From: a virus
Taxonomy: Duplodnaviria; Heunggongvirae; Uroviricota; Caudoviricetes
Direction: 5' to 3' (one strand)
IMG/VR virus record: IMGVR_UViG_2585427761_000013
Length of the DNA: 4,300 bases
This document shows, one piece after another, positions 1-4,300 of this stretch. The notes under the pieces are model-generated. The model searched no databases. It saw nothing but the letters and a program-made list of their open reading frames with translations, and was not told where the DNA came from. Every line of letters begins with the position of its first letter. Position 1 is the stretch's first letter. The position numbers and the translations under genes were made by a program.

Positions 1-579
1 GCGACGGAGGGTATCTCAGGGATGGTGAATAACATCACGGAGATGCTGAACGGAAATAAAGTGGAATGGCGCAGCTGGGCCTCATCAGTGCTGCAGGAAA
101 TATCAAAAGTTCTTATGAATGCCGCGATTGTCAACGGGATCAAGACGGCGGCAAACAGTATGTCCGGAGCGGGAGGATTTATCGGCAGTATTGGTAGCTG
201 GCTGGGCGGTGCGGTGGCCAATGCAAAAGGCGGGGTGTATACCTCGGCAAACCTGAGTGCGTACAGCAACAGTATTGTGGATACGCCCACGTACTTTGCC
301 TTTGCAAAAGGGGCGGGACTGATGGGGGAGGCCGGTCCTGAAGCCATTATGCCCCTGACCCGGGCGGCGGATGGCTCGCTGGGTGTGCGAGCGGTGGGCA
401 GTATGAACGGCAGTGCAGGTCTGGTGTATTCCCCGGTCTACCATATCGCCATTCAGAATGACGGGACTAATGGCCAGATAGGGCCGGAAGCTGCGGGCAG
501 CCTTGTGCAACTGATTGACCAGCGGGTGCAGGCGGTGATGCTGTCCATGCGACGTGACGGAGGAATGCTGAGTGGCTGA
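1..579 (+). CDS. H: Tail tape-measure protein, C-terminal part (lambda gpH-like); 5' end lies upstream of the window
   Basis: The frame is open from position 1 (no stop before the ATG at 22) and ends at TGA 577-579. The translation (…NGNKVEWRSWASSVLQEISKVLMNAAIVNGIKTAANSMSGAGGFIGS…) resembles the C-terminus of lambda gpH as I recall it. Its position directly upstream of M-L-K-I-J is the canonical gene order. Confidence 0.85.
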   Translation, partial: ATEGISGMVNNITEMLNGNKVEWRSWASSVLQEISKVLMNAAIVNGIKTAANSMSGAGGFIGSIGSWLGGAVANAKGGVYTSANLSAYSNSIVDTPTYFAFAKGAGLMGEAGPEAIMPLTRAADGSLGVRAVGSMNGSAGLVYSPVYHIAIQNDGTNGQIGPEAAGSLVQLIDQRVQAVMLSMRRDGGMLSG

Positions 580-913
580 GATAAAAACGCTGCATCTGGT
601 CCCGCGTGAAGGGATGCAGGTGAGTGAGAAACCGTCGGTGGCGAGGGTACGGTTTGGTGACGGTTATGAACAGCGCCGCCCGACGGGACTTAATGCCCGA
701 CTGAAGACGTTTCAGGCGGTGTTCCGGGTGACGGATGAGGCGACCCGGCGATGGCTGGAAGAGTTTTTATCGTGGCATGGTGGTTACCGTGCCTTTTTGT
801 GGCGACCGCCGAAACATAACCGGACGGTGAGGGTGGTATGCCGGGAGTGGAGCGTCACAGATAACGCCAGGTACAGTGATTTCAGTTGTACGATTGAGCA
901 GGTGGTGAACTGA
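572..913 (+). CDS. M: Minor tail protein M (lambda gpM-like), 113 aa
   Basis: The product contains VRFGDGYEQRRPTGLNA and ends in EQVVN, as lambda gpM does in my recollection. A GTG start at 572 is preceded by GGAGG (559-563) with an 8-nt spacer and overlaps the H stop. The exact start is uncertain, but an internal ATG would truncate the conserved N-terminus. Confidence 0.8.
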   Translation: MAEIKTLHLVPREGMQVSEKPSVARVRFGDGYEQRRPTGLNARLKTFQAVFRVTDEATRRWLEEFLSWHGGYRAFLWRPPKHNRTVRVVCREWSVTDNARYSDFSCTIEQVVN

Positions 914-1611
914 TGCAGGATATTCACGAAGAAAGTCTGAACGAGTCGGTTAAATCAGAGCAGTCACCGCGGGTGGTACTCTGGGAAATCGACCTGATGG
1001 TACAGGGCGGTGAGCGGTATTTTTTCTGTAATGAGCTGAATGAAAAAGGGGAGCCGGTCACCTGGCAGGGGCGTAAGTATGAGGCATACCCAATTGACGG
1101 CAGCGGCTTTGAGATGAACGGCCGGGGCAGCAGTGCCCGCCCGTCGCTGACGGTGTCCAATCTGTTTGGCCTTGTCACCGGGATGGCGGAGGACCTGCAG
1201 AGTCTGGTGGGGGCCACGGTGGTCCGCCGCCGGGTGTATGCCCGTTTTCTGGATGCGGTGAATTTCGTTGCGGGCAATCCGTCGGCGGACCCGGAGCAGG
1301 AGCTGAGTGACCGCTGGGTGGTGGAGCAGATGTCGCAGCTGACAGCCATGACGGCCTCGTTTGTGCTGGCCACACCGACCGAGACGGACGGGGCGCTGTT
1401 TCCCGGTCGCATCATGCTGGCGAACACCTGTATGTGGGATTACCGGGGAGATGAATGCGGGTATAACGGTCCTGCGGTGGCGGATGAGTTCGACAACCCC
1501 ACCACGGATATCCGTAAGGACAGATGCAGCAAGTGCATGCGCGGGTGTGAACTGCGCAGGAATGTCGGCAATTTTGGCGGTTTCCTTTCCATTAATAAAC
1601 TTTCGCAGTAA
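913..1611 (+). CDS. L: Minor tail protein L (lambda gpL-like), 232 aa
   Basis: The product (MQDIHEESLNE…VVLWEIDL…GGERYFFCNE…GEPVTWQGR…GNFGGFLSINKLSQ) closely matches lambda gpL as I recall it and is the same length. The start ATG at 913 overlaps the M stop (TGATG), and AGGTGG lies 7 nt upstream. Confidence 0.9.
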   Translation: MQDIHEESLNESVKSEQSPRVVLWEIDLMVQGGERYFFCNELNEKGEPVTWQGRKYEAYPIDGSGFEMNGRGSSARPSLTVSNLFGLVTGMAEDLQSLVGATVVRRRVYARFLDAVNFVAGNPSADPEQELSDRWVVEQMSQLTAMTASFVLATPTETDGALFPGRIMLANTCMWDYRGDECGYNGPAVADEFDNPTTDIRKDRCSKCMRGCELRRNVGNFGGFLSINKLSQ

Positions 1612-1621
1612 ATCCCGGTTT

Positions 1622-2365
1622 ATGACACAGACTGAATCAGCGATTCTGGCGCATGCCCGGCGGTGTGCGCCTGCGGAGTCGTGCGGCTTCGTGGTGAGAA
1701 CGCCGGAGGGGGAGCGGTATATCCCTTGTGTGAATATCTCTGCAGAGCCGGAGGCGTATTTTCGTATTGCACCGGAAGACTGGCTGCGGGCAGAGATGTC
1801 GGGGAAGATTGTGGCGCTGGTTCACAGTCATCCCGGTGGTCTGCCCTGGCTGAGCGAGGCTGACCGGCGGCTGCAGATAAAAAGCGCACTGCCCTGGTGG
1901 CTGGTCAGCCGGGGTGACATTCACAAATTCCGCTGTGTGCCACATCTGACAGGACGGCGCTTTGAGCACGGGGTGACGGACTGTTACACGCTGTTCCGGG
2001 ATGCTTATCATCTGGCGGGGACTGAAATGCCGGATTTTGAGCGTGAGGATGACTGGTGGCGCAACGGTCAGAACCTGTACCTGGACAATATGGAGGCGAC
2101 TGGTTTTTACAGGATTTCCCTGCCTTCCGCACAGCCTGGCGATATCCTGCTGTGCTGCTTTGGCGCATCGGTGGCCAATCATGCCGCCATATACTGCGGC
2201 AACGGTGAACTGCTTCACCATCTGCCTGAACAACTGAGTAAACGGGAGAGGTATTCCGAAAAATGGCAACGACGAACGCATTCTGTCTGGCGTCACCGCC
2301 ACTGGCACGCATCTGCCTTCACGGGGATTTGCAACGATTTGGCCGCCGCCTCAGCCTGTATGTGA
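1622..2365 (+). CDS. K: Tail assembly protein K: N-terminal JAB/MPN (JAMM) metalloprotease-like domain plus C-terminal NlpC/P60 cysteine peptidase domain, 247 aa
   Basis: The ATG at 1622 gives MTQTESAILAHARRC…. A JAMM-type motif H-S-H-x7-S-x2-D is present as HSHPGGLPWLSEAD (residues 68-81). NlpC/P60-like catalytic residues are Cys in GVTDCYTLF and His in ANHAAIY. The upstream part of ORF 1361..2365 overlaps L in another frame and is not coding. Confidence 0.9.
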   Translation: MTQTESAILAHARRCAPAESCGFVVRTPEGERYIPCVNISAEPEAYFRIAPEDWLRAEMSGKIVALVHSHPGGLPWLSEADRRLQIKSALPWWLVSRGDIHKFRCVPHLTGRRFEHGVTDCYTLFRDAYHLAGTEMPDFEREDDWWRNGQNLYLDNMEATGFYRISLPSAQPGDILLCCFGASVANHAAIYCGNGELLHHLPEQLSKRERYSEKWQRRTHSVWRHRHWHASAFTGICNDLAAASACM

Positions 2366-2943
2366 ACACGGCAGCGGAAGCCATCCGGGCGCTGTCGTTA
2401 CAGGTGCCCGGATTTCGCCGTCAGATGAACGAAGGGTGGTACCAGATACGTATTGCCGGTGATGACACGGCACCGGAGGCGGTGTACGCCCGTCTTCACG
2501 AACAGCTGGGTGAGGGAACGGTCATCCACATTGTGCCGCGACTGGCCGGGGCCAGAAAGGGTGGACTGCAGATTGTGCTGGGGGCGGCAGCCATCGTGGG
2601 GTCGTTCTTCACTGCCGGAGGCTCGATGGCGTTATGGGGTACAGCCCTGGCAGCCGGCGGTTTTTCTGCCACCACGATGCTGTTTTCACTGGGGGCCAGC
2701 ATGATACTGGGCGGTGTGGCCCAGATGCTGGCACCGAAGGCAAAAACACCGGATTACCGCGCAACGGATAACGGTAAACAGAACACGTATTTTTCCTCAC
2801 TGGACAATATGATTGCCCAGGGTAACCCGATGCCGGTGCCTTATGGTGAAATGCTGGTTGGCTCCCGCCGTATATCCCAGGACATCAGTACCCGTGATGA
2901 AGGCGGGGACGGAAAGGTCGTGGTTATCGGGCGGCAGGGGTAA
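2263..2943 (+). CDS. I: Tail assembly protein I: N-terminal ubiquitin-like (beta-grasp) domain ending in Gly-Gly, then a Gly/Ala-rich hydrophobic segment and a C-terminal domain, 226 aa
   Basis: The product (…ARICLHGDLQRFGRR…IHIVPRLAGARKGG LQIVLGAAAIVGSFF…QNTYFSSLDNMIAQGN…YGEML VGSRRISQDIST…VVVIGR) matches lambda gpI as I recall it. A GGGAGAGG stretch lies upstream of the ATG at 2263. The first 103 nt overlap the 3' end of K in a different frame, an overlap that lambda also has. Confidence 0.9.
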   Translation: MATTNAFCLASPPLARICLHGDLQRFGRRLSLYVNTAAEAIRALSLQVPGFRRQMNEGWYQIRIAGDDTAPEAVYARLHEQLGEGTVIHIVPRLAGARKGGLQIVLGAAAIVGSFFTAGGSMALWGTALAAGGFSATTMLFSLGASMILGGVAQMLAPKAKTPDYRATDNGKQNTYFSSLDNMIAQGNPMPVPYGEMLVGSRRISQDISTRDEGGDGKVVVIGRQG

Positions 2944-2944
2944 A

Positions 2945-2982
2945 AAGAATAAAAAAATCCCGCAGTGTTGCGGAACTGCGGG
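2945..2982 (-). terminator. Rho-independent terminator oriented for the minus strand (distal terminator of sodC)
   Basis: An 8-bp GC-rich stem (2959-2966 cccgcagt, 2975-2982 actgcggg) encloses an 8-nt loop. On the minus strand it is followed immediately by A-TTTTTTT-ATTCTTTTT (complement of 2945-2958). On the plus strand the hairpin is followed by agcgttacgaag, with no U-tract, so it is a poor plus-strand terminator. Confidence 0.6.
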
Positions 2983-3100
2983 AGCGTTACGAAGATTGAG
3001 TGTAAGGAATTATTCTTATGTCACGACAAAAACATTAACTCAGAGAGGGAGGATGTGCCGTTCTTTTCAGGGAGAAAGGATTTATCGTCCTGAGGAATAA

Positions 3101-3124
3101 AGGTAAGGGGCCCGCCCCTTACCT
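3101..3124 (-). terminator. Perfect 10-bp stem, 4-nt loop hairpin 6 nt downstream of the sodC stop; possible proximal terminator or 3' stabiliser
   Basis: The sequence aggtaagggg-cccg-ccccttacct is a perfect inverted repeat. On the minus strand it is followed by TTATTCC, a weak U-tract. No U-tract follows it on the plus strand. Confidence 0.4.
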
Positions 3125-3130
3125 GACTGA

Positions 3131-3658
3131 TTATTGAATGATGCCGCAGGCCATTCTCGCACCACCACCGCCCAGGGGCTCCGGATGGTCATGATGGTTA
3201 TCACCGCCAGCATGAAGCATGAGAGAACGCCCTTTAATCTCTTTTAATAAGTTCAGTCTCGGGGCCAGGACCGGGTAGTTCGCTTTTCCGTCATGCGTCA
3301 CGAACAGCGCAGGGAGGTCGCCCAGGTGTCCATCCGGAGACCAGGGGCCAAGATGTTTGCCGGTGTTTTTCGGGTCAAAGTGACCGCCAGCCGATAATGC
3401 TGCGACCGGTTTTCCGTCTTTCAGTGCCGGGGCGCAATTTCCTTTTTCGTGCACATGAAAACCATGAATGCCTTCAGACAGAGAGTGAAGGGCTGGTGTG
3501 AACAGCAGACCGTAGGGGGTCTCCTGAATGGTTATTTTTCCAATGCTGACTTCTTTTCCGTCAGCACTGACAAGGTTCATTGGGACTTCCTGTTCTGCTG
3601 CGTATCCGCATGATGCTGCTGTCAGCATGGCAATGGCAGCAATGATTTTACATTTCAT
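3131..3658 (-). CDS. sodC: Periplasmic copper/zinc superoxide dismutase precursor (SodC family), 175 aa, phage-borne cargo gene
   Basis: The minus-strand ATG at 3658 is preceded by GAGGG (complement of 3663-3667) and gives [24 protein letters not shown]…, a signal peptide. Cu,Zn-SOD hallmarks are present: [43 protein letters not shown] and [14 protein letters not shown], including both disulfide cysteines. The stop TAA is at 3131-3133. The longer listed ORF (3131..4165) is only an in-frame run lacking a stop. Confidence 0.9.
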
Positions 3659-3791
3659 AAAACCCTCATTAATTCCGTTAACAGACTGAGCTTGCTGGTT
3701 ACAGGGTAACAAACAGCGTTCTGATGATATCGCGCAATAGCTGTGCAATATCCTATCACTGCGATTAATAATACCAATTGAGAGGAACATT
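3659..3791. promoter_or_regulatory. Intergenic region between divergent sodC and J; presumed sodC promoter and operator region, also holding the J ribosome-binding site
   Basis: This 133-bp non-coding, comparatively AT-rich stretch is the only place a sodC promoter can sit. I could not find a clean sigma70 -35/-10 pair; TTGCAC and TATCAT-like hexamers exist but are badly spaced. The J RBS GAGAGGA is at 3780-3786, 5 nt before the ATG at 3792. Confidence 0.3.
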
Positions 3792-4300
3792 ATGGGTAAA
3801 GGTGGCGGCAGGGCGCACACGCCTCGAGAGGCGAAGGATAATCTCAAATCCACGCAGATGATGAGTGTGATTGATGCGATTGGTGAGGGACCGATAGAAG
3901 GCCCGGTGAAAGGCCTGCAGAGTATTCTGGTGAACAAAACCCCGCTGACGGACACGGACGGTAATCCCGTGATACACGGTGTGACGGCGGTCTGGCGCGC
4001 CGGGGAGCAGGAGCAGACACCACCGGAAGGCTTTGAGTCCTCCGGTGCTGAAACCGGACTGGGCGTGGAAGTGACGAAGGCAAAACCGGTGACGCGCACC
4101 ATTACGTCTGCGAACATTGACCGCCTGCGGGTTACCTTCGGGGTGCAGTCACTGGTGCAGACCACGTCAAAGGGCGACCGTAATCCTTCCTCTGTCCGGA
4201 TTCTGATTCAGTTACAGCGTAATGGCCGCTGGGTGACGGAAAAGGACGTCACCATTAACGGCAAGACCACCTCACAGTTCCTGGCCTCGGTGATTCTGGA
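3792..4300 (+). CDS. J: Host specificity / central tail fibre protein J, N-terminal part; continues beyond the window
   Basis: The ATG at 3792 follows GAGAGGA. The frame stays open to the window end, which is why the ORF track omits it. Hand translation gives [42 protein letters not shown]…[15 protein letters not shown]…[13 protein letters not shown]…TSKGDRNPS…, which matches the lambda gpJ N-terminus as I recall it. Confidence 0.9.

Follow-up and report, generated by a model that had tools for sequence, protein, structure and literature searches.

The closest described counterparts of the gene analysed here encode SodC-F1 and SodC-F2 of Escherichia coli O157:H7, which are carried by the prophages CP-933R and CP-933V (D'Orazio et al. 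2008, BMC Microbiol 8:166; PMC2569942). Superoxide dismutase activity was measured for SodC-F1. SodC-F is dimeric, more active and more stable than the chromosomal SodC, and expressed in log phase and under anaerobic conditions, whereas the chromosomal enzyme is monomeric, fully soluble, restricted to stationary phase, less active and less stable (PMC2569942). The same study named an AASC lipobox in SodC-F, while the leader of the chromosomal enzyme has no lipobox Cys, and the LipoP program found cleavage by signal peptidase I (SPase I) at 20/21 and by signal peptidase II (SPase II) at 16/17 both compatible with the SodC-F sequence. Upon Triton X-114 partitioning, plasmid-encoded SodC-F1 with its native leader was recovered in the aqueous as well as the detergent phase; the mature protein fused instead to a pelB leader, a control in which the whole leader and not Cys17 alone was swapped, was entirely soluble (PMC2569942). 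Chromosomally FLAG-tagged SodC-F1 of O157:H7 was likewise present in both phases, and the chromosomal SodC was almost entirely soluble (PMC2569942). In this assay, a precursor that is cleaved slowly or not at all would enter the detergent phase just as a lipidated protein does. A precedent for a membrane-anchored SodC is the enzyme of Mycobacterium tuberculosis, which is lipid-modified via an SPase II-type leader according to D'Orazio et al. 2001, as cited in PMC2569942.

We analysed a DNA stretch of 4300 bases (hereafter the window), which its open reading frames and homologies identify as a lambdoid prophage tail region with a sodC gene in reverse orientation between gpI and gpJ. The features of the window and of the sodC leader are compiled in Table 1.

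Table 1 Features of the 4300-base window and of the sodC leader; ↓ marks a cleavage position here and in the text.
Feature	Positions	Strand	Remarks
End of tape-measure gene, then gpM-, gpL-, gpK- (C40 peptidase) and gpI-like genes	upstream part of window	plus	
Second terminator-like hairpin between gpI and sodC	2958-2983	minus	9-pair stem, then TTTTTTT
GC-rich hairpin directly 3' of the sodC stop	3101-3124	minus	terminator candidate; 10-pair stem, 6 GC pairs, weak T-tail
sodC coding sequence	3131-3658	minus	175 codons plus stop; Cu,Zn superoxide dismutase of prophage SodC-F1/F2 type
SPase I (-3,-1) site G18-Y19-A20↓A21	3596-3607	minus	soluble mature N-terminus AEQEVP...
Lipobox-like A14-A15-S16-C17	3608-3619	minus	Cys17 codon TGC at 3610-3608
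Leader that SPase II would remove, residues 1-16	3611-3658	minus	n-region M-K-C-K, h-region IIAAIAML, then T-A-A-S
sodC-gpJ intergenic region	3659-3792	minus	presumed sodC promoter region
Shine-Dalgarno GAGGG	3663-3667	minus	4 nt upstream of ATG; plus strand reads ccctc
gpJ host-specificity gene, start only	from 3793	plus	divergent from sodC

A scan of positions 2900-3850 gave no match to a sigma-70 consensus promoter in the sodC-gpJ intergenic region. Three further open reading frames were rejected as genes: a minus-strand frame of 344 residues (3131-4165), whose GTG start lies within gpJ on the other strand and which no homologue supports, and two plus-strand frames (3449-3613 and 3528-3689), which are antisense artefacts of the sodC frame. 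Within the tail genes, the open reading frame list shows an overlap of about 100 bases between the gpK-like and gpI-like frames (window 2263-2365). The Stx2a phage, Gifsy-2 and Fels-1 are annotated with the same overlap, and RefSeq uses a shorter start for gpI of strain ATCC 43894.

The product of 175 amino acids matched Pfam PF00080 (Sod_Cu) with 113.7 bits (E=1e-32; cut-off 28.9 bits) and, over residues 2-174, the NCBIfam SodC equivalog NF007628 with 216.1 bits (cut-off 165 bits). Residue alignment to 1Z9N showed that the metal-ligand His/Asp and disulfide Cys motifs, including MACG, are intact. The protein is exactly WP_032240523.1 of E. coli 3-475-03_S3_C2 and essentially the same as SodC-F1/SodC-F2 of O157:H7 (PMC2569942), whose genes occupy the same position in the lambdoid prophage tail region. 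The first 26 codons are those of SodC-F of the O157:H7 strain ATCC 43894, including Cys17 of the AASC motif and the SPase I 20/21 site. Judged by its sequence, the gene is thus sodC-F, a probable 'moron' of lambdoid/Stx prophages, and the identification of the product as a phage SodC in the preliminary description of the window is borne out by homology and by the tail-gene context. By analogy, the published properties of SodC-F, partial membrane association among them, should apply to the window protein as well.

Close copies of the gene are widespread. At 99.8% identity, the sodC region has counterparts in sodC of two Stx2a-converting phages and in 547 of 5426 complete E. coli genomes; O157:H7, O145, O111, O121 and O26 strains account for many of these genomes, and a single genome has up to four copies. 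Over sodC and the upstream intergenic region (3131-3792), a single difference in 662 nt separates the window from the O157:H7 chromosome and the Stx2a phage, with 100% identity in the intergenic part (3659-3792), whereas the spacer between gpI and sodC and the tail genes on either side (1-3130 and 3793-4300) are only 92-97% identical to the corresponding O157/Stx2a-phage versions. The one nucleotide difference lies at 3249 in codon 137, which specifies Leu in the window and Ser in the O157/Stx2a-phage copies (L137S; the context of Ser137 in the O157 and Stx2a-phage copies compared is APRLNSLKEIKG); this substitution in the mature domain is also the sole difference of the window protein from those of ATCC 43894 and the Stx2a phage, and the other closest sequences (P0001-P0003) have Ser there as well. 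Together with the two terminator-like hairpins 3' of sodC, this pattern fits a moron whose cassette is retained, or moves, without regard to the phage backbone around it.

Any statement about the leader depends on the start codon. We take the upstream ATG as the true start because GAGGG stands 4 nt upstream of it, because the 26 N-terminal residues of the window SodC align over their full length with the leaders of 115 homologues, and because the equivalog NF007628 covers residues 2-174. A second Met codon, Met27, lies at 3578-3580, and deposited annotations of 149 residues begin there (P0131, P0137 and P0166; one for EDL933). Were Met27 the true start, as the several deposited annotations that give the 149-residue protein (again including that for EDL933) would have it, the product would be made without a signal peptide and the codons discussed below would be untranslated. 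The Shine-Dalgarno sequence, the alignment of the 26 upstream codons with the signal peptides of 115 homologues and the span of the equivalog all speak against this reading. Furthermore, the protein cloned from the upstream ATG is exported, and Cu,Zn superoxide dismutases with a structural disulfide are periplasmic in Gram-negative bacteria (PMC2569942). We give a start at Met27 next to no credence; it is refuted in practice, and the database entries that use it are mis-calls. As the signal peptide is absent from such annotations, the question of a lipobox is hidden in them.

Positions 3596-3658 are exactly codons 1-21 (M1 to A21) of sodC on the minus strand, and both the translation and the coordinates agree with the T-A-A-S-C sequence with Cys17 that had previously been noted in this leader. 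In order to judge this motif, we used our own implementation of a PROSITE PS51257-type rule, which asks for K or R in the first 7 residues, six uncharged residues, Cys at 15-35 and, in the residues before Cys, the pattern [LIVMFWSTAG]2-[LIVMFYSTAGCQ]-[AGS]-C. The window SodC passes this rule at Cys17. The strict lipobox consensus is given as [LV] at -3, [ASTVI] at -2, [GAS] at -1 and C at +1 (PMC8689077), and the window sequence does not agree with the corresponding pattern [LVI][ASTVI][GAS]C, since position -3 is Ala; Ala at -2 and Ser at -1 fit. The motif is therefore a permissive SPase II pattern with Ala at -3, in agreement with the preliminary description. Since a Cys in a signal peptide rich in Ala, Ser and Thr fits the permissive rule almost automatically, the motif match alone is weak evidence. 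The leaders of lipoproteins range from 16 to 26 residues in length (PMC8689077), and the 16 residues of SodC-F lie at the short end. With the full protein and with the 33-residue N-terminus as queries, the Pfam models of lipoprotein attachment sites (LPAM), short models that are insensitive, gave no match at E<=10; the only match of the Pfam scan at that threshold was a meaningless one to DUF7070 (E=0.12). A second Cys of the leader, Cys3 (codon 3650-3652), lies in the n-region M-K-C-K outside a lipobox context; it is common to several close lineages (MKCK/MKCN), and R or Y takes its place elsewhere.

The alternative cleavage position has the features of an SPase I-type signal peptide with n-, h- and c-regions, in which G18 (-3) and A20 (-1) provide small neutral residues before A21. 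In the alignment, most of about 100 other SodC proteins have their A-Q/H-A↓A-S/T site in the columns of G-Y-A↓A. The site after G-Y-A, which had been called equally plausible on first inspection, is thus the homologous cleavage position of the family, and it also corresponds to the SPase I position of chromosomal E. coli SodC (1ESO), a member of the same family. Residue 22 of the window SodC aligns with residue 2 of mature 1ESO, and the alignment to homologous crystal structures places the start of ordered structure at about residue 25. The preliminary description also held that sequence alone could not decide between the two sites, which accords with the published finding that LipoP accepts both and that the protein occurs in both phases. 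The LipoP prediction and the fractionation that it proposed as checks had, in fact, been published, with SPase I and SPase II both compatible in the former and SodC-F split between soluble and detergent phase in the latter (PMC2569942). Its two-way reading of the leader is upheld by these data, but its novelty is not, as the same AASC motif had been printed in 2008 (PMC2569942). The AASC motif and the soluble/membrane split of SodC-F have been known since then. What is new here is minor, namely the retention of S-C-G-Y across mobile relatives, a lineage with Tyr17, and the conservation of the sodC cassette beyond that of the tail genes. In the literature searched for later work on SodC-F lipidation, only the 2008 paper (PMC2569942) was relevant, and it yielded no results from globomycin treatment, palmitate labelling, mass spectrometry or Cys17 point mutants of SodC-F.

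The leaders of other SodC proteins provide useful comparisons. SodCI of Gifsy-2 (L012:2501-3034) belongs to the same family, is 58% identical to the window protein and is likewise encoded by a moron among lambda-like tail genes, although sodCI lies between gpL and Lom/gpM and the window gene between gpI and gpJ. In its leader, MKYTILSLVAGALISCSAMA↓E, a lipobox Cys precedes an A-x-A site by four residues, a layout shared with the window SodC, but the lipobox is canonical (L-I-S-C16, followed by S-A-M-A↓E) and passes both rules, whereas that of the window protein passes the permissive one only. SodCIII of Fels-1 (L013:2495-3019) is 60% identical, and its gene shares both the gpI/gpJ junction and the opposite-strand orientation with the window sodC; its leader, MNKKLMTLAVFLFSSAASA↓A, contains no Cys and offers an SPase I site only. 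The M. tuberculosis enzyme is distant, as the window SodC scores 59.6 bits on the NCBIfam model SodCMycob, for which the cut-off is 230. In addition, M. tuberculosis has no classical periplasm, and the anchor is the sole route there but would be one of two here.

We propose that SodC-F undergoes dual processing by SPase I and SPase II from a Sec leader with two overlapping signals, a reading to which we assign a probability of roughly 0.6. On the first route, signal peptidase I (LepB) cleaves after G18-Y19-A20, as shown by homology and by the published LipoP and fractionation results; Cys17 is lost with the leader and a soluble enzyme starting with AEQEVP is released. The second route is suggested by the motif, the detergent partitioning and the need for the native leader. 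Here, Cys17 of the weak A-A-S-C lipobox would receive diacylglycerol from Lgt, LspA would cleave between S16 and C17, and Lnt would then N-acylate the new N-terminus. A tether of just about 8 residues, from C17 to E24, would hold the enzyme at the membrane, given that ordered structure probably begins at about residue 25 as in the homologous crystal structures. Because Cys17 is followed by Gly18 and not by Asp, the +2 sorting rule of E. coli predicts that the Lol system would deliver the lipidated fraction to the inner leaflet of the outer membrane. The poor residue at -3 and the competing SPase I site four residues downstream may explain why only part of SodC-F is membrane-bound. Dual processing is supported by the rule match at Cys17, the family SPase I site, the LipoP and partitioning results of 2008 and the conservation of S-C-G-Y, and, by analogy, by Gifsy-2 SodCI, in which a lipobox Cys likewise lies four residues before an A-x-A site. 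Ala at -3, the missing LPAM match, the short leader and the natural variants with Tyr17 or Asn17 count against it.

The conservation of the Cys was assessed in an N-terminal alignment of 116 SodC sequences, i.e. the window SodC and 115 homologues. A Cys in a context of the lipobox class is present in 45 of these N-termini, and 12 of the 116 pass the full PS51257-type rule, ten of which are the window SodC and its closest relatives. Many chromosomal SodC leaders (homologues P0015-P0120) have a lipobox-context Cys at position 13-14, six to seven residues before A-Q-A↓A, such as 'GLMACGAAQA↓A' in Serratia and 'ALACATAAQA↓A' and 'LVACAGVQA↓A' in Pantoea; in these examples it is too N-terminal for the PROSITE rule (15-35). 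Cys residues thus recur in SodC leaders, with uncertain significance. Among the closest relatives, which are 76-85% identical (P0004-P0010 and cluster members), S-C-G-Y-A-A follows six different h-regions. The Cys of S-C-G-Y is kept in 40 of the 49 full-length clade sequences, and it is encoded by TGC as well as TGT. Its retention in this proportion, behind six h-region variants and with both codons, argues for some constraint. Position -3 is always A or T in the clade relatives, with L, V or I in none, so that the lipobox of the clade is consistently weak, and the SPase I site is consistently retained.

Clade members without the lipobox Cys include P0177, P0163, P0168, P0145, P0011 and P0141. 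In the lineage of P0177, TAT replaces TGT/TGC and encodes a Tyr17 that is followed by G-Y-T-A; this version is found on 346 contigs, and Tyr17 also occurs on the IncF plasmid pPSJ-22_1 (L014:3001-3528). Asn17 was seen in one sequence only, whose record is flagged UNVERIFIED_CONTAM. The existence of the Tyr17 lineage and of the Asn17 sequence suggests that the Cys is dispensable, and the natural Tyr17 variants could serve as ready-made 'soluble-only' controls.

These data also bear on the possibility that SPase I alone processes the leader. Cys17 would then be tolerated and lost with the leader, and the detergent fraction would consist of precursor or of enzyme associated non-covalently with the envelope. 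The conserved family cleavage site G-Y-A↓A, the non-canonical residue at -3 in every clade member and the natural Tyr17 and Asn17 variants are all in line with such a scheme, and the presence of a lipobox-context Cys in 45 of 116 SodC leaders, mostly too N-terminal for the rule, indicates that such a Cys is common and need not be functional. Tethering of SodCI has been attributed to non-covalent peptidoglycan binding and not to a lipid anchor. The Salmonella enzyme is described as 'tethered' in the periplasm in a passage of a preprint (bioRxiv 10.1101/274878), and the evidence for lipidation in the 2008 study of SodC-F is indirect (PMC2569942). On the other hand, the version with the pelB leader was entirely soluble, which shows that the mature domain is not membrane-sticky by itself, and partitioning was seen at native expression of the chromosomal tagged genes, too (PMC2569942). 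Together with the retention of the Cys across divergent h-regions, these observations make processing by SPase I alone rather unlikely in our view.

The exo-forms of Bacillus licheniformis penicillinase arise by clipping of the lipidated form. Similarly, all SodC-F molecules might be processed by SPase II first and lipidated, with the soluble pool generated afterwards through cleavage of the short tether by a periplasmic protease. The existence of both a soluble and a detergent-phase pool (PMC2569942) is compatible with this order of events, as is the tether C17-E24, which the structure alignment suggests to be short and probably exposed. However, a canonical SPase I site at the family cleavage position leaves no need for an extra protease, LipoP rates that site as compatible (PMC2569942), and complete lipidation is not to be expected of a weak lipobox. 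We regard this explanation as very unlikely.

The location of a periplasmic superoxide dismutase affects protection from host superoxide as well as loss of the enzyme upon damage of the outer membrane. A lipid-anchored pool under dual processing could therefore help to explain why EHEC keep extra phage-borne sodC genes, an idea that was raised and partly tested in 2008 (PMC2569942). More speculatively, the weak lipobox and the SPase I site together might be a selected 'split-destination' leader of a mobile SodC clade whose E. coli copies lie on phages, plasmids and islands; Gifsy-2 SodCI would have it in a stronger form. We consider such selection doubtful. [quoted passage not shown]

The S-C-G-Y block is present in phage, plasmid and other mobile relatives, and the clade copies are not all phage-borne. 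One lineage resides on plasmids of about 100 kb, e.g. CP024150.1 (L003-L005), where sodC is surrounded by genes for ParA/ParB, an IS3-type transposase, a NERD-UvrD helicase and RelE/MqsA-type toxin-antitoxin systems. Another clade sodC adjoins ABC transporter and IS/reverse-transcriptase genes, and a Salmonella relative adjoins genes for a ScsC-like thioredoxin and TraX. The relatives in such non-phage mobile contexts (L003-L005, L006 and L009) are 67-82% identical to the window SodC, and further copies of the clade are located on IncF plasmids.
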